A stretch of DNA of 64,000 nucleotides, taken from positions 192,001-256,000 of the forward strand of contig WJMJ01000059.1 of assembly GCA_014728035.1 (NCBI GenBank), read 5' to 3'. This DNA comes from Promethearchaeota archaeon (lineage in GTDB: Archaea; Asgardarchaeota; Thorarchaeia; Thorarchaeales; Thorarchaeaceae). The notes under the pieces were generated by a model. That model saw only the letters and a list, made by a program, of their open reading frames with translations, was not told the origin of the DNA and did not search any database. A program made the position numbers and the translations under genes. Shown one piece after another: positions 2,253-34,482 of this stretch. Within the stretch, counting starts at the first letter, position 1. Each line of letters begins with the position of its first letter.

Positions 2253-2918
2253 CTATACAAATCCGAGTATTTGGCTAATATGTGCAAGTTCAACACCGGT
2301 CGTGTCTGTTCCTGCAATCATTCCATCAATATTTGCGAGGACTCCAAGTTTTGTGTATGGGGATCCTCTATTGACTGTGCCCACCTCGACATGGACTTTT
2401 AATAACTCCGATATCCTATTCATCTCTTCATCGGTTGCCATTGGATGCACTACTGCTCCACGATTTGTTATAATGGTATTCGCGCCTACAATAGGCAATT
2501 TTGCAACGGTCCCTGGATGAACTTCTACATCAAGGATATCTGAAATCTTTTTTCTTGATTTGGAATCAAATTCCGGATGGCATATTGCTCCATGATCATT
2601 TGCCAGAATTATATTTCCCATAGCTGTCATCTTACTATCAATCCAATCGACATTGATATCTGTATTTTCTTTAAGATAAGCAAATTCTTCATCAGTTGTG
2701 GTGTACGGTAGTAGCATTCCATGTGAATTGGCTACTGCTACCAAACCTATAGCATCAAGACTTGCTATTGTTGATTGAATTATTGGAAGATTGAATGCTC
2801 GTTCAAATACTTCAAGAGCCTTTTCAGACATATTTGGACTGATACATATCATTTGGTCTGTAACGACTCCAAAGGCTCCTACGTTAACATCGCCCTCGAA
2901 GTCTGTACGGGCGATCAT
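2253..2918 (-). CDS. eif6: translation initiation factor 6 (aIF6)
   Basis: GNIILANDHGA, GTVNRGSP and GTDTTGVE motifs. Confidence 0.95.
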   Translation of the reverse strand: MIARTDFEGDVNVGAFGVVTDQMICISPNMSEKALEVFERAFNLPIIQSTIASLDAIGLVAVANSHGMLLPYTTTDEEFAYLKENTDINVDWIDSKMTAMGNIILANDHGAICHPEFDSKSRKKISDILDVEVHPGTVAKLPIVGANTIITNRGAVVHPMATDEEMNRISELLKVHVEVGTVNRGSPYTKLGVLANIDGMIAGTDTTGVELAHISQILGFV

Positions 2919-2925
2919 ATATCAG

Positions 2926-3309
2926 TTACCCCTCCGCTAAATAAACTCTGACAAGATTATCAGAATTCTTTGTGACTCTGATTCTGATTCTTCGGGGTGG
3001 TTTTTCTATTCCTCTGCTCCAAAGCCTTCTATTCACTTCGGGTTGAATCTCGAGTTCTTCTGGTTTCATATGTCTTTCAACGAATTTACGTAGAATCTTT
3101 ACTGCACGGTTTGTCCTGCGAAGTCTTGTTCCTGTCCAGTATGCCTTTCTTAATGGCACGGTGTAAATCCTCTCATCTATGATTTCTTCTTCAGGCAGAA
3201 ACTCATCTGCAACAACCTCTTCTTCTTCTACCTCGTCTGGAGTAGTAATCTCCATGTCTGGTAAATCTTCTTCAATATCAATTTCCATTTCTTCTGCCAT
3301 TGCAAACAC
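2926..3309 (-). CDS. rpl31e: 50S ribosomal protein L31e with acidic N-terminal extension
   Basis: ERIYTVPLR...RAVKILRKFVERHMK...LWSRGIEKPPRRIRIRV. Confidence 0.95.
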   Translation of the reverse strand: MFAMAEEMEIDIEEDLPDMEITTPDEVEEEEVVADEFLPEEEIIDERIYTVPLRKAYWTGTRLRRTNRAVKILRKFVERHMKPEELEIQPEVNRRLWSRGIEKPPRRIRIRVTKNSDNLVRVYLAEG

Positions 3310-3312
3310 CTT

Positions 3313-3468
3313 TTACGGCTTCAATTTCGTGCTACGCCAGTGGCGTTGTTTTGGGTTTCTTCTTATTTTCCCACTAGTTTTCATGATGACCCAGGTTGGT
3401 ACACTACTGTTGGACTTGAGAGCTTTAGCCATCCTGAGTTTCTTTGGGAGTGATTTGTTTCGTGCCAT
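3313..3468 (-). CDS. rpl39e: 50S ribosomal protein L39e (below the ORF-track size cutoff)
   Basis: Manual translation [51 protein letters not shown]. Confidence 0.95.
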
Positions 3469-3484
3469 TCTATTCACCTTTGTT

Positions 3485-3814
3485 CTACCGGAATTTTATC
3501 TTTCGTTCGCGTTCTCGTCCTTGCAATTGTTTAAGGAGTTTCTTAAGCTGATCATCAGTTACTTTTCCTCTGAGACGTCCAGAAGAAGCCAGCTGAATAA
3601 GCTGGTATTCAATCTGCTCTGCGAATTGAGGTTTGACCATTCTGATGTTGGTAAGCCTTGAACGGGCATCAGGAGTGAGAATCTGCCTAAGAATTGCTTC
3701 TTTTTGAGCTTCTGCTTCTGCCTGCTTTTGTTCCTGCAATTGCTCTTGGGTAGCCTGCTCTTTAAGTGCAGCAAGCTTCCGTTCACGAATTGCATCAAGC
3801 TCATCATCACTCAT
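3485..3814 (-). CDS. PDCD5-family dsDNA-binding protein
   Basis: [13 protein letters not shown]...[22 protein letters not shown]...[10 protein letters not shown]; usual position after rps19e. Confidence 0.92.
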
Positions 3815-6102: not shown

Positions 6103-6825
6103 TTAATTTCCGTCAGCTTTGTCAATGAGTGATTTTGCAGTGCGCATGTGATTCTCTAGTGCTGCTTTATCATATGATTGACTCATGAGAGCAAGTACTT
6201 GGATTACTCCTGTAAGATTGAAGCTTCTTTTCTTGAGCATCTCAATTAGTCTTCTATCTGCGGAAGGACAAAGGACAGTATAATGGATTATTTTATCGAA
6301 ACAGAGAACGAAACGTTTCCATAGGGGACTTCCTCTCTCTATGATATCTATTGCTTGGTTTCGATACTTCTGCCAATTTTTCTCAATTGCATTTAGCAAC
6401 TGGTCGAAAAACGGCTCAAATTCGTTATCATTCAGTGTTGTTCTCAGAGATGTGAACAGACACATTGGATAGTATGGCACCTCTCCACTGGGATTATAGA
6501 ACTCGTCTAAGCTAGCCACTCCCCAAGAAAAAGGAAAGAGCAAATAATAGCCTTGTGCCAAACCAACAATCTTCTTCTCTGACTGATTTTCTGCCCAGAT
6601 TGAGAATATGCGAGTGCTCCGTTTATCGATATCTGGTATTTCTTTTCCCCATGGATGAATATTAGAGAAATCTATGACATATGGCCCTGTTTCTTCAGTG
6701 ACATGAACCGTCCCTCTCTCAGTGGATTCATAAAGTAATTCAATTACACTTTCCGAGTCAAATTTTGCCATCTGATCAGATGTGGCTTGCTTCACTCTCC
6801 CATCATGAAAAATAATCTGCATCAT
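6103..6825 (-). CDS. hypothetical protein (possibly a degenerate GNAT-like fold)
   Basis: 240-aa ORF with upstream GAGGT RBS; no firm motif. Confidence 0.65.
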   Translation of the reverse strand: MMQIIFHDGRVKQATSDQMAKFDSESVIELLYESTERGTVHVTEETGPYVIDFSNIHPWGKEIPDIDKRSTRIFSIWAENQSEKKIVGLAQGYYLLFPFSWGVASLDEFYNPSGEVPYYPMCLFTSLRTTLNDNEFEPFFDQLLNAIEKNWQKYRNQAIDIIERGSPLWKRFVLCFDKIIHYTVLCPSADRRLIEMLKKRSFNLTGVIQVLALMSQSYDKAALENHMRTAKSLIDKADGN

Positions 6826-30320: not shown

Positions 30321-30424
30321 GTCTTTTCGATTCGAATTCTATCTATCTTGTTTGGAGTAAAGAACCACTTTTGTATGTCTTTATTAGCATCACTTGCTAC
30401 AATGAGGTGTTAGCTAAATGTTGA

Positions 30425-31714
30425 GTGTACATATTATTGAATGATGACTCTTTACAACAATCTTCTGCTTCTATAGATACAATTGTGCGTAGTGCCCCTG
30501 ATAGTCTTCTCTCTGTGTGGTTTGACCAATATTTCTATTTCAAACGGAATGATCTGAGAAAAATTTTGTATAATGTATGTGATACACTCAATATTGAAGG
30601 CACATCATCTGAAAGAATAGAACAACTGAATACCTGCATGAGTAAACAAATTCCTAACAAGCACTTTCACAAATTGTCACTGAATAATGGAACCGTTCGC
30701 CTTTCGGGAATGATGTTATCCTTTTTACTTTCGGTTCTTGGGATTTCTGTGCGTGAGGTTCAAAAATTCGTTGTACGCGTATGTGGACGGAACGGTCATG
30801 GTGGTATCAAAAAGCCAAACATGATGGAGGGTGAAGAACTCGAAGTGTTCAGAGCTCGTTTTGCTGCAATCGTGAACAGTGATTGCTGGCTTGGTGAAGA
30901 TGGTAGATTACAGTATACTGAAGCTGATAGAGGTCGAATCAAAGTGGTTTTCGATATACTACAGATGATTGGGGATATCCCAATTGAACTGGTTCCGAAT
31001 CCTGTTAATCGCAGCGTGAAGATATGGTTACCAAAACCTCTTGGCCCCGCCTTTATTCGATGGGGCTTTACAACAGGTGACAAGTCTATTCAAAATGAAC
31101 GTTTAGTAGAAATAGTTAGAAATGGGTCATTGATCTCGCATAGAGGATATCTTGAAGAATTGATTTCTGAAGATGGCTGCTTTGAACAATTTGCTGGTTT
31201 CAAATGGAGTAGAACTATTGTTCTCAATTTGGGGATTTATGATACCAAATATAATCTCGAACCAAAGCTTTCCAATCAAGACTGTGAGCTTCTTCTATCA
31301 TTTGATAAAGCTCGAAAAGACATGAAGAAAAAGTGTACTATTGTATCAATACACCAGCTTGAGAAGGCAATTGAACATGATTTTGCCCAGGATGTATTGG
31401 AAATAGTTTCAACATCTCGTAGTAGTCTTCTGGATGATGAGGTATCTCTTGCTGAGCAATTTGGTATTAGAATTCTATCATACCCCGAATACATTACACT
31501 GTATGAGAGTGGACGAGTATCCGTCAAGTGGGTTGCAAAGACAGCAACCAAATTAGATGCCATCCGATGGGCTCTATTATTCCCTCCAAATGATCCGAGA
31601 AAAAGAAACAAAGTTAACCAATGGTTAAAAACTCAAAGAGATGAAACTTCAATTATTCGAGATCATCTTGAACGAGAAGGAATCCTAACGTATGGTGGAC
31701 CGGGCGTGATTTGA
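30425..31714 (+). CDS. free-standing LAGLIDADG (DOD-type) homing-endonuclease-like protein
   Basis: Motif 1 FAAIVNSDCWL followed by RLQYTEAD; block RWGFTTGDK...EIVRNGS; motif 2 YLEELISEDGCF. Confidence 0.72.
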   Translation: MYILLNDDSLQQSSASIDTIVRSAPDSLLSVWFDQYFYFKRNDLRKILYNVCDTLNIEGTSSERIEQLNTCMSKQIPNKHFHKLSLNNGTVRLSGMMLSFLLSVLGISVREVQKFVVRVCGRNGHGGIKKPNMMEGEELEVFRARFAAIVNSDCWLGEDGRLQYTEADRGRIKVVFDILQMIGDIPIELVPNPVNRSVKIWLPKPLGPAFIRWGFTTGDKSIQNERLVEIVRNGSLISHRGYLEELISEDGCFEQFAGFKWSRTIVLNLGIYDTKYNLEPKLSNQDCELLLSFDKARKDMKKKCTIVSIHQLEKAIEHDFAQDVLEIVSTSRSSLLDDEVSLAEQFGIRILSYPEYITLYESGRVSVKWVAKTATKLDAIRWALLFPPNDPRKRNKVNQWLKTQRDETSIIRDHLEREGILTYGGPGVI

Positions 31715-31799
31715 ACACGCGACCTCCTCCATGCCAAGGAGGCGATCTTTCCCGACAGCCACATAATGCTGGACTGTTACCGAGCTGATCTACCGGCCC
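31693..31799 (-). tRNA. tRNA-Ala(GGC) with a 30-nt BHB-like intron at 20/21 (31749-31778)
   Basis: GGGCCGG/CCGGTCC acceptor with G3:U70, CCTCC-TTGGCAT-GGAGG, encoded CCA; CTCG-GTA...CGGG-AAA motif. Confidence 0.92.
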
Positions 31800-32201
31800 G
31801 TGATATTGCACAGGGCATCCGAAGATAACCAGTGGTGTGCAATTTGTTCTGCACACATATCAGGTTAAAAGAGTTATGGCATGAAGATTCCAGATATATT
31901 TACTAGATGATTTTAATTGGGACAAGAAGAAACTGATTTTGAAAGTTGCTAATGTGCTTGTTCTATCCTATCTGATACTATCCAGTCACTAATAAAGTCC
32001 GATAAATACTGAAATCCAAATTGAGAGTAATGACTAGTTTTTTCTTGAATTTTAAGGAAAAGTAGCTAGAATTTTCGCTGTATTTTGTTCGCTCTCCATG
32101 GATATTACTACTTAGAATAAAGACAATTCAAAGGAGACAAACAAAAGATGAACTTTCCAGAGCCACATCCCGACGGACCTTGGTAACCAACTATTTCAAT
32201 G

Positions 32202-32223
32202 GATGTCTTGATATCAAGACATC
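32202..32223. other. perfect 22-bp palindrome GATGTCTTGATATCAAGACATC
   Basis: Read directly; about 40 nt beyond the peptidase stop codon. Confidence 0.55.
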
Positions 32224-32260
32224 TCTATTTTTTCTTGAATCTAAACGTAGATGGATTTAA

Positions 32261-34318
32261 CTATATTTCAAGGTTAATCCTGTGCCAATATAATTCCACT
32301 AACCAGAAATCAATCCATTCGTTCATTGTCATTCCTCCTACATGACCCGTTTGTTTCCGAACCCATAAAATAATTGGAGAATCTGAAGATAGTCTACTTG
32401 CTTTCTCTTGAAGATGTGCCAATAATTTTGTTGTGTGCATCAAGTTTGCTCTTGCATCATTCTCTGCTACATAGAAGAGTGTTGGAGGATATTCTACAGA
32501 TTCTGATACGTTATGATATGGTGAATATGAATGGAGGTAATGAAACTCTTCAGCTTTCGATGGGTCTCCGTACTCATTAATCCAATATGAAGCGATTGGA
32601 TCTCTGGTGTATCTTATCATGTCTGCAAGTGGGGCTGAGGCATATACTGAACCAAAACACTGTGGTTCTTTCATCATTGCTGATAAGACCATCAGTCCAC
32701 CATTGCTTGACCCACGAATTCCAATCATCTCATGTGTCGAATATCCCTCATCTACAAACCATTTCGCTGCATGAATCACATCTTCTATGACATTCATTTT
32801 GTTCTCGAGCTTTCCATCTCTGTGCCATTTTTCGCCGAATTCACCTCCACCTCTAATATTAGCGATTGCATAGTAACCTCCTAATTCATTCCATAGCACA
32901 TGAAACGGTGAATAAGTTGGATGCTGTGAAATGCCGAAGCCTCCATAGACATGTATGATAGTAGGATGTGGGACACTGGTATCTAGGTCTCGGCGATACA
33001 TCAGAAACATCGGGATTTCTGTTCCGTCAAAGGATTGGAACCAGACCTGTTTGCACACATATTCTGTTTCAATCAAGCTTATTTTTGGCTTGAAGAATGA
33101 GCTTACTTTAGTTAAAGGCGAGTAAGCTTTGTATTGAATTGGTGAATAGAATGAATTCACCCCGAACATGATAATCTCTTCACCATCAGTGGAAAGATTG
33201 ACAATTTGTGTGATTTCTTCGTTACCAAATATAATCTCAGATTGATGTGTATTCAGGTCGAACTTTGTAAGGAGCGAGTGCACATTTTCTGTTTCAGCTA
33301 TAATCAGTGATTCGTTAAATGGAATAAGCAAATCAATTGGGTTCTTTGTTTTGTATGGTATTGTCTGCCGTTGTATTACGATATCTTCTGAAGGAGAAGG
33401 TAATGCATAATGACTGATTTGTTGTCCCGATTCTGGGGATTCATGGGCGATGTAGAGTGAATTTTGATACATATATGGGATAATTTTCGATTGATTCTCT
33501 AATAGTACAATTATTTCAGAGGCGCATTCAGGATGAAAGACAACCAGATCAATAGATACTCCTTGGTTTCTTGTGTATACCAGCCAGCTAGAATTTTCGC
33601 ATCCATATAATTCAACACGTTCGGGTTTTCTTCCCTCTCCTGATATCATACAGATATCGTCCTCATAATTCGTACCAATTCTATGGTAAAAGATACTGCC
33701 AGCAAAACGGCCATTTTCTTCAGGAGTGAATGAAGTGAAGGGATAGTAAAATCCAGAGTTGTCTTTATTCCAAATAATCGTTGCATATAGAAGATTCGGG
33801 ATGATGTCATCCAGATGTTCGGAATTGGCAACCTTGACTATACGAAGTGTCGATTTTTCACGTCCGCCTTTCGAGTAACCATAAGCGACATATGATCCAT
33901 CCCATGATGGAGAAAACCATTCTATCTTTATTGTTCCATCTGCAGCAATGCTAACTGGATTAACCAAAGTAATTCTATCTCCAGTAATTCCATCTTGATA
34001 ACAAAGACGCATCTGTGGATCATTCTGATATCTGAATAAATAGAAGAAACGATGGTCTTTTCTTCTTTTCCTAATAACAATCCCTTGTGTTGACATCGAG
34101 TTAAATAGCGATAATTCACTCAGTCGTTTTTGGATATCTTTTTGTTGTGAATACCCAGAGAGAACACGTTTGCCTAATTCATCCTGTTCTTCTAACCATT
34201 TTTGCACCTCTGGATCCTCATTGTTCTCTAACCACCTATAGGGGTCTCGAACCTTGACTCCATGAATTGTTTCGACTATATTATCACGACGCGTGCTCGG
34301 ATATCTTATCTTGCCCAT
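32261..34318 (-). CDS. prolyl oligopeptidase (S9A)
   Basis: DPYRWLE, YGGFG, NIRGGGEFGEKWH, catalytic GSSNGG, ENDAR, TGH. Confidence 0.93.
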   Translation of the reverse strand: MGKIRYPSTRRDNIVETIHGVKVRDPYRWLENNEDPEVQKWLEEQDELGKRVLSGYSQQKDIQKRLSELSLFNSMSTQGIVIRKRRKDHRFFYLFRYQNDPQMRLCYQDGITGDRITLVNPVSIAADGTIKIEWFSPSWDGSYVAYGYSKGGREKSTLRIVKVANSEHLDDIIPNLLYATIIWNKDNSGFYYPFTSFTPEENGRFAGSIFYHRIGTNYEDDICMISGEGRKPERVELYGCENSSWLVYTRNQGVSIDLVVFHPECASEIIVLLENQSKIIPYMYQNSLYIAHESPESGQQISHYALPSPSEDIVIQRQTIPYKTKNPIDLLIPFNESLIIAETENVHSLLTKFDLNTHQSEIIFGNEEITQIVNLSTDGEEIIMFGVNSFYSPIQYKAYSPLTKVSSFFKPKISLIETEYVCKQVWFQSFDGTEIPMFLMYRRDLDTSVPHPTIIHVYGGFGISQHPTYSPFHVLWNELGGYYAIANIRGGGEFGEKWHRDGKLENKMNVIEDVIHAAKWFVDEGYSTHEMIGIRGSSNGGLMVLSAMMKEPQCFGSVYASAPLADMIRYTRDPIASYWINEYGDPSKAEEFHYLHSYSPYHNVSESVEYPPTLFYVAENDARANLMHTTKLLAHLQEKASRLSSDSPIILWVRKQTGHVGGMTMNEWIDFWLVELYWHRINLEI

Positions 34319-34482
34319 TGCAAAATTCCTACCATGATTTTGAATATGACTTATAGAAACTCTATCTTAATAGTGATTTTGGTGCTAGAAATAATTTGAT
34401 ATTCTGAACACGAAATATTCTGAATCTTGTTGGATATACCATAAAAGAAGAATTAGAGAGGCTGCCTATGCAGCCTATTAGT

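Follow-up and report, generated by a model that had tools for sequence, protein, structure and literature searches.

A free-standing LAGLIDADG endonuclease-like gene abutting tRNA-Ala(GGC) in a Thorarchaeales genome, a candidate integrase-free homing cassette

An open reading frame that ends inside tRNA-Ala(GGC)

We analysed a 64,000-nucleotide (nt) stretch of DNA, hereafter the window, from a Promethearchaeota archaeon of the Thorarchaeales (GenBank assembly GCA_014728035.1, contig WJMJ01000059.1, positions 192,001 to 256,000 of the forward strand), and focused on a gene for a putative LAGLIDADG homing endonuclease and on the tRNA-Ala(GGC) gene that it meets end to end. The open reading frame (ORF), taken from the ORF list and characterized with AlphaFold2 (AF2), Foldseek and VIA, occupies positions 30425..31714 of the plus strand. 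From its GTG start it encodes 429 amino acids (aa), and an alternative TTG start at 30437 gives a 425-aa form, which is the one held in a public protein collection (P0003). It is set between an Lrp-family gene and the tRNA, and is present in a single copy in the genome of the window (G000). Relatives are named here by G-numbers for genomes, where G001 belongs to the same genus as G000 and G004 and G019 share one other genus, and by L-numbers for loci (L008, L046, L047, L055, L057-L062, L065 and L066 among others; L046 and L055 come from G004 and L047 from G019).

The original prediction had described the gene as free-standing, with neither intein splicing motifs nor a flanking intron. No intein or host gene was found, and the insert of G000 relative to G001 contains this ORF and no other. 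The gene is not housed in an intron or an intein: in relatives the module forms the C-terminal end of the protein and is never an in-frame insert. Inteins had been our first reading of the long open frames around the homologs, and were ruled out because the homology invariably falls at the C-terminal end of the protein. The region of the start codon (30404-30444) contains a Shine-Dalgarno-like GAGGTG and, 8 nt beyond it, an ATG (30418) that is out of frame with the gene. This ATG opens an 8-codon frame that ends within the start of the nuclease ORF, and both in-frame starts (GTG 30425 and TTG 30437) stand farther from the GAGGTG than it does. The short frame may represent a small ORF upstream of the gene, or else what is left of an old frameshift. 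A tRNA-Ser called inside the ORF (30879-31013) by ARAGORN in intron mode was treated as an artefact.

The tRNA-Ala(GGC) gene, with its CCA end encoded, lies on the minus strand at 31693..31799 (exon 2, 31693-31748; D-loop intron, 31749-31778; exon 1, 31779-31799). The two genes overlap by 22 nt (31693..31714), which hold the last base of a Tyr codon, the codons for GGPGVI and the TGA. These last codons are the complement of the CCA, the 3′ strand of the acceptor stem and the T-stem, and the TGA is the complement of T55-C56-A57; every observed element of the earlier claim that the ORF reads antisense 22 nt into the tRNA and stops on its T-loop was thus confirmed. In the structural model the tRNA-encoded residues 423-429 are disordered, with a predicted local distance difference test score (pLDDT) below 50, and the homologs end ~8 residues before the window's protein. 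A nuclease gene convergent with tRNA-Ala(GGC) was found in G000, G004, G019 and G007 and at L061 and L062, with stop-to-CCA distances of −22, 6, 0, 1, 9 and 10 nt, respectively. In the clade that includes the window's gene, six further members stop within 0-10 nt of the 3′ end of tRNA-Ala(GGC). Because translation in the relatives ends at a separate stop codon, 0-10 nt short of the tRNA, the read-in is best explained as a lineage-specific by-product: the window's lineage would have lost its own stop, after which translation would continue until the first stop in frame, which is the T-loop TCA read from the complementary strand. The original prediction had proposed a tRNA-targeted homing element that uses the conserved tRNA end as its stop codon. 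The own stops of the relatives argue against the tRNA as a designed stop, while the link to tRNA genes gained support from the abutment, and mobility from the signs described below.

Read from its sequence, the tRNA has a G3:U70 pair in the acceptor stem, the anticodon GGC at 31733-31735 and the T-loop TTCAAAT. ARAGORN missed it with default settings and, in intron mode, gave the right coordinates and typed it as Pro, a typing that we treated as an artefact; the Rfam tRNA model scored 23.6 bits and covered the 3′ two-thirds only. When the orthologs of six related genomes were aligned, the D-loop had ~30 extra nt in G000, G001, G002, G004 and G009, while the G019 ortholog was intron-less with a normal length of 77 nt and the G007 ortholog had the D-loop intron plus a second one at the canonical anticodon-loop position. 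A relaxed bulge-helix-bulge (BHB) structure delimits a predicted 30-nt intron (31749-31778): two 3-nt bulges flank a 4-bp helix, the inner helix has 6 bp and an outer helix is missing. Without the intron the product would be 77 nt long, as is the intron-less gene, and G001 and G002 show the same geometry. The tRNA-Ala gene therefore has the features that define a BHB intron, and its splicing is predicted from them. The hairpin of the D-loop intron carries compensatory substitutions between G000 and G001, and the number of introns in tRNA-Ala(GGC) varies even between closely related genomes, from none in G019 through one in the D-loop in most copies to a D-loop intron together with one at 37/38 in G007, L061 and L062. 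The orthologs lie at 9289-9365 in L047, 8943-9079 in L048, 8942-9049 in L051 and about 8890-8996 in L052.

An unusual D-loop intron in the adjacent tRNA raises the idea that the function of the gene is linked to it, whether by co-homing with the intron, as the original prediction had proposed, by protection through it, or as a maturase-like factor. We consider this highly improbable, since gene and intron are not correlated: the two are combined in G000, G004 and G007, but in G019 the gene adjoins an intron-less tRNA, and in G001, G002 and G009 an intron-bearing tRNA stands without the gene. In addition, it is the splicing endonuclease that excises BHB introns, and no maturase is required. A comparison of the T-stems of tRNA-Ala alleles with and without the nuclease gene gave no consistent difference.

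The link to tRNA genes expected by the original prediction extends beyond tRNA-Ala. One family member (L066) is separated by 37 nt from the end of a tRNA-Gly(GCC) gene with two introns, and two others (L057 and L058) are in tandem ~135 nt downstream of tRNA-Thr(GGT). Looser neighbours are a tRNA-Met ~1 kb away at L065 and a tRNA-Asn ~0.7 kb from a member in G002. Altogether ~12 of the 26 family loci have a tRNA within ~1 kb, while less than one such locus would be expected by chance; this is a rough estimate that assumes ~46 tRNA genes per 3.3 Mb and is applied to loci that are non-independent.

A predicted two-motif LAGLIDADG nuclease and its family

The curated sequence models gave no match to the protein, so its family membership rests on fold and motifs. 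No family was found in Pfam or NCBIfam at E ≤ 1; PHROGs and the Protein Data Bank sequences returned one chance-level match each (E 0.13 and 0.31, respectively). Pfam searches with four full-length close homologs retrieved nothing, and one homolog scored 17 bits on PF14528, for which the cut-off is 22.5. On the other hand, the AF2 model built from a 33-sequence alignment (A1) reached a pLDDT of 90 and a predicted template modelling score of 0.88, and was confident over residues 17-422; the check by structure prediction suggested with the original claim thus returned a LAGLIDADG fold. The top Foldseek matches were I-Tsp061I, PI-SceI and I-DmoI, all with probability 1.00. In the comparison with VIA the TliVMA intein ranked highest, its endonuclease domain reaching a Z score of 14.8; PI-PfuI had 14.5, I-Tsp061I 13.6, I-DmoI 12-12.6 and WhiA 12.8. 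The matches at Z 12-14.8 took in 160-199 aligned residues within model residues 136-410, and for the endonucleases named the root-mean-square deviation was 2.2-3.0 over 160-193 residues (2.2-2.5 for I-DmoI). These residues form the core of the model, a double alpha-beta-beta-alpha-beta-beta-alpha unit packed through the two LAGLIDADG helices.

The first of these helices (residues 136-153, 30830..30886 on the plus strand, as assigned by DSSP) ends at D153, encoded at 30881-30883, and is followed by C154 and a beta strand at 154-156; its motif AAIVNSDC covers residues 147-154. The second (residues 236-250, 31130..31177 on the plus strand, also from DSSP) ends in E249-D250-G251, with the D250 codon at 31172-31174, and leads into a strand at 251-254; here the motif is EELISEDG, residues 244-251. 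The two acids are 97 residues apart. D153 is invariant in A1 and in a set of 12 closer sequences (A2). Position 250 is D or E in all 33 sequences of A1; in A2, D250 is conserved in at least 90% and both E249 and G251 are invariant. The window's protein retains all 36 invariant columns of A2 together with both acids. VIA aligned model residue 137 to residue 5 of I-DmoI, and by a constant offset we infer that D153 falls on I-DmoI residue 21. Acids at the ends of both helices, as modelled, are the position pattern of the LAGLIDADG catalytic acids, and the predicted product of the ORF is a monomeric two-motif LAGLIDADG nuclease. AF2, Foldseek, VIA and the alignments agree in this respect with the earlier recognition of two LAGLIDADG helices that keep their acidic residues.

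The known enzymes that come closest are I-DmoI and I-Tsp061I, encoded in archaeal rRNA introns, which have the same double core with an acid ending each LAGLIDADG helix. The window's gene differs from them in that it is not intronic and has no detectable sequence similarity to either, and its family differs by core insertions, by an extra N-terminal domain of ~120 aa and, in most members, by long extensions rich in helix-turn-helix (HTH) domains. The extra domain covers about residues 17-135 (30473..30829, plus strand) and is conserved across the family in A1 and in a further alignment, A3. Modelled alone it reached a pLDDT of 84.5; among solved structures the best VIA match had a Z of 4.5, with weak matches to XRE-type HTH proteins at Z 3-3.7, and Foldseek returned no match at E ≤ 0.001 (best 0.44). 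It may be an additional DNA-binding domain.

An exhaustive HMMER search of 1.84 billion representatives gathered 292 clusters at E ≤ 1e-3, of which 102 were at E ≤ 1e-30. In every cluster the matched part (query residues ~24-421) is C-terminal, behind an N-terminal extension of 0 to ~1100 aa. HTH domains occur in some of the extensions, and generic HTH domains were all that Pfam recognized in the longer homologs; the module is usually the C-terminal part of longer HTH-bearing proteins. Short members made of the module only (377-430 aa) are nevertheless common, and the minimal form is this conserved module of ~400 aa alone. All the named records are Candidatus Thorarchaeota metagenome-assembled genomes (MAGs) except for one Hermodarchaeota, and the NCBI annotation of a member reads "hypothetical protein". 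Among 41 related genomes, G000 included, 18 had matches, with 0-7 copies per genome and several at contig ends. No relative of the family was found among the IMG/VR viral contigs. G001 has two family fragments on contig C2 (228745-229287 and 513940-514197), with open frames of 191 and 122 aa, which fit the decay and loss of such genes.

The fold by itself would also suit the other possibility raised by the original prediction, a domesticated regulator of the WhiA type. Such a protein would bind DNA without cutting it, be inherited vertically and lie beside the tRNA by historical accident. WhiA shares the fold and is free-standing, and its Z of 12.8 is level with those of true endonucleases; the gene, moreover, is single-copy in G000 and has the same GC content as its flanks. 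WhiA, however, no longer has the catalytic acids and bears a C-terminal HTH, and its gene is conserved, syntenic and present once per genome, whereas the family described here keeps the acids throughout, is patchy and multi-copy with many members at contig ends, has its module swapped between congeners and is missing from the syntenic site of G001 in the same genus. Considering both sides, we find domestication improbable.

The tRNA-Ala locus in related genomes

According to blastp, the neighbourhood of tRNA-Ala(GGC) is syntenic across the related genomes. A blastn comparison of the G000 and G001 loci outlined a segment, 30352..31692, that is present in the window and absent from the syntenic site of G001. 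There, the flanks are the same and 139 unrelated nt separate the Lrp-family gene from the tRNA, compared with 1371 nt in the window. DNA homology between the two genomes stops at the Lrp stop codon and restarts exactly at the first base of the CCA; a short motif common to both lies 19 nt after the Lrp stop, and the left edge of the segment ~30 nt after it. No remnant of the nuclease gene was detected in the 139-nt spacer of G001. The two genomes have in common the tRNA lineage and the 85 nt upstream of it. The nuclease gene is likewise absent at the tRNA-Ala of G002 and G009. Comparison with relatives lacking the ORF, which had been proposed as a check, therefore yielded three empty sites, to which the module swap and the displaced tRNA fragments described below are added.

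As tRNA 3′ ends are the usual targets of tyrosine integrases, the gene might be the cargo of a classical integrase-mediated island, and the same-orientation 3′ fragments downstream of the full tRNA in G004 would agree with that. Yet the segment absent from G001 amounts to one ORF and no integrase, the window has no att-like repeat, and in six other genomes the gene-tRNA junction stays at 0-10 nt whatever lies beyond. We give this explanation hardly any credence, the least of those considered here.

A maximum-likelihood tree placed all the tRNA-Ala copies in one clade with an SH-like approximate likelihood ratio test (SH-aLRT) support of 98. L057, L058 and L059 are nested within it, which is consistent with moves away from tRNA-Ala. 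G004 and G019, although of one genus, fall in different subclades. Their loci are mosaic (8189-13456 in L046 for G004, 4015-9288 in L047 for G019): the flanking proteins and an upstream 852-aa TraG/VirD4-like ATPase are 95-97% identical, and the first ~300 aa of the nuclease protein are ~82% identical, while its last ~600 aa are ~40% identical. The divergent block takes in the tRNA-Ala, an intron-bearing gene in G004 and an intron-less one in G019. From this pattern we conclude that recombination swapped the nuclease module together with the tRNA. Upstream of the tRNA, G019 has ~1.25 kb more than G004.

Further pieces of tRNA-Ala are scattered along the G004 locus (contig C21, L055). Beyond the ATPase, the promoter and 5′ end of a G019-like tRNA-Ala recur as an inverted copy of 68 nt, and three 3′ fragments in the orientation of the intact gene are found 12-16 kb downstream; the four pieces, one inverted promoter with 5′ end and three 3′ ends, are at L055 1336-1360, 7238-7285, 8946-8971 and 10691-10709. 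Such a stack suggests several successive events at the locus. At L062 an old tRNA-Ala gene is split around a 4.6-kb insert in which the nuclease gene (2374-3507) is followed by a complete, inverted tRNA-Ala with two introns (3518-3654). The old 5′ piece (1660-1770) retains the promoter, exon 1 and the intron, and the 3′ piece (6393-6449) is decayed, with a shortened anticodon loop. The insert also contains two more ORFs, of 506 and 255 aa. Orientation varies as well: relative to its flanks, tRNA-Ala points one way in G000, G001, G004, G009 and G019 and the other way in G002 and G007, the latter with the gene and tRNA inverted as a pair and the former with the tRNA alone.

These arrangements allow a second form of mobility, in which the mobile unit would be the nuclease gene plus a complete tRNA gene that invades and splits the resident tRNA and supplies a working replacement. 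Repeated invasions by such a pair would explain the orientation flips, the turnover of tRNA introns and the leftover fragments. We regard this extension as possible, though doubtful. Beside the window's ORF, a search for a decayed tRNA-Ala end or 5′ fragment found no similarity above shuffled controls.

A question of its own is posed by the size of the positional counterparts of the ORF at tRNA-Ala, which have 618-904 aa. In G004 and G019 they are preceded by the TraG-like ATPase, and the window's copy has neither this ATPase nor the HTH-rich N-terminal extension found in those two genomes; a search of G000 for the ATPase gave one weak unrelated match elsewhere (E 2.5e-8). With ≤ 48% identity to any relative, the window's copy also has the longest end branch of the clade (0.73, against 0.25-0.49). 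It might then be a dead relic, the stranded C-terminal module of a larger element of ATPase and long HTH-LAGLIDADG protein that no longer moves or cuts, its frame kept open by chance or by some weak residual role. The odd start context, in which the GAGGTG stands at optimal spacing to an out-of-frame ATG, points in the same direction. Against decay stand the intact 36 invariant A2 columns with both acids and the confident model over residues 17-422; and a short form is nothing exceptional, given that module-only members of 377-430 aa are common and that the 618-aa form of G007 also lacks the ATPase. Overall we judge a relic unlikely, although whether the window's copy is still active is the main uncertainty of our interpretation.

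A putative homing cassette and its known counterparts

We interpret the locus as probably a LAGLIDADG homing-endonuclease cassette that is free-standing and linked to tRNA-Ala(GGC), present in the window in its minimal, one-gene form. The evidence suggests that the unit of nuclease gene and convergent tRNA behaves as a selfish, integrase-free cassette, whose current mobility is a prediction. In a first step the enzyme would cut tRNA-Ala loci that do not carry the cassette, in or beside the tRNA gene. Repair from a cassette-bearing copy would then bring in the nuclease module, often with adjacent tRNA sequence. This cut-and-repair model would explain the constant abutment to the CCA end and the difference in presence between sister genomes, as well as the different nuclease lineages at one site in congeners and the displaced pieces of tRNA-Ala.

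Several observations weigh against this interpretation. The cutting, the cleavage site and the transfer are the steps that we infer as most likely by analogy with the WHO elements discussed below. About half of the family loci examined have no tRNA within ~1 kb of the available flank. In the 64-kb window there is no other tRNA-Ala fragment and no repeat of the tRNA end, and the match in GC content between the nuclease gene and its flanks gives no sign of recent transfer by composition. The deletion in G001 of an anciently fixed gene fits the empty site as well as a gain in G000, and the divergence of the window's copy could mean that it is old and no longer mobile. Finally, the genomes are MAGs, and that of the window has an estimated contamination of 8.5%.

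Among archaea, LAGLIDADG homing genes are known from rRNA introns and inteins, and most documented free-standing ones come from yeast nuclei (WHO/HO) and from organelles. Fungal mitochondria have mobile ORFs (mORFs), for example at atp6 of Allomyces, in which an endonuclease ORF lies at the 3′ end of a conserved gene and brings a replacement end. They differ from the present case in being organellar with protein-coding targets, and the window's locus has no duplicated gene end. In WHO-like and mORF-like elements one expects polymorphism in presence and turnover of lineages at one site, both of which are found here, and displaced target ends beside the element, which are present in G004 and L062 and not in the window.

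The WHO elements offer the closest parallel. As described by Coughlan et al. (2020, PMC7282813), WHO elements of Torulaspora and Lachancea target FBA1 by homing, substitute its 3′ end at each integration and so form clusters. In both systems a free-standing LAGLIDADG gene lies directly downstream of one conserved target gene, and the nuclease tree has a target-associated backbone with moves to other loci; the displaced 3′ fragments and the swapped nuclease at the tRNA-Ala loci of relatives also resemble what is seen in yeast. The differences are that the target here is a tRNA gene and not a protein gene, that the hosts are archaea and that cleavage is a prediction; nor does the family show any sign of the intein and zinc-finger parts of the WHO proteins.

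Within the Asgard archaea, the element HeimM2 of Ca. Heimdallarchaeum carries a homing-endonuclease-like gene and is inserted between a 16S rRNA gene and tRNA-Arg, and its authors proposed that the nuclease was perhaps co-opted for site-specific integration (Wu et al. 2022, PMC8813620). It resembles the present case as an Asgard mobile element with such a gene beside a tRNA gene, a likeness drawn from its description and not from sequence. Unlike the window's cassette, it is an 8-kb element of Heimdallarchaeia with other cargo, and PMC8813620 reports neither abutment to the tRNA end nor a family survey. Apart from that remark, no publication describing such a family in Asgard archaea came up in full-text literature searches.

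A family that is a sequence orphan thus appears to land at tRNA genes without an integrase and to swap its nuclease module, along with the tRNA, between species. Should the enzyme be active, genes would have an additional way to flow in the archaeal lineage that stands nearest to eukaryotes, and the unusual variability of tRNA introns in these genomes, like that of their tRNA-gene fragments, would have a concrete cause; the family would also provide new nucleases of long recognition sites with an extra, unmatched domain of DNA-binding type. If the pair of nuclease and tRNA is itself mobile, DNA would be moving without an integrase, and this movement would drive diversity among the tRNA genes and tRNA introns of Asgard archaea. 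The window is the cleanest test case, as it holds the one-gene form and has an empty-site comparator in the same genus.

Two minor observations concern the surroundings. At L008 (G021), a match to the C/D-box small RNA sR14 lies inside the coding region of a family member (1730-1782); at 25.7 bits it is below the gathering score and is probably due to chance. On the other side of the window's tRNA-Ala, homology with G001 ends ~85 nt upstream of the tRNA (window 31885-34400), and the S9 prolyl oligopeptidase gene at 32261-34318 on the minus strand, recognized by the Pfam families Peptidase_S9_N and Peptidase_S9, is missing from the syntenic locus of G001. Since this side also lacks a G001 counterpart, the two genomes differ by an insertion or deletion on both sides of tRNA-Ala.

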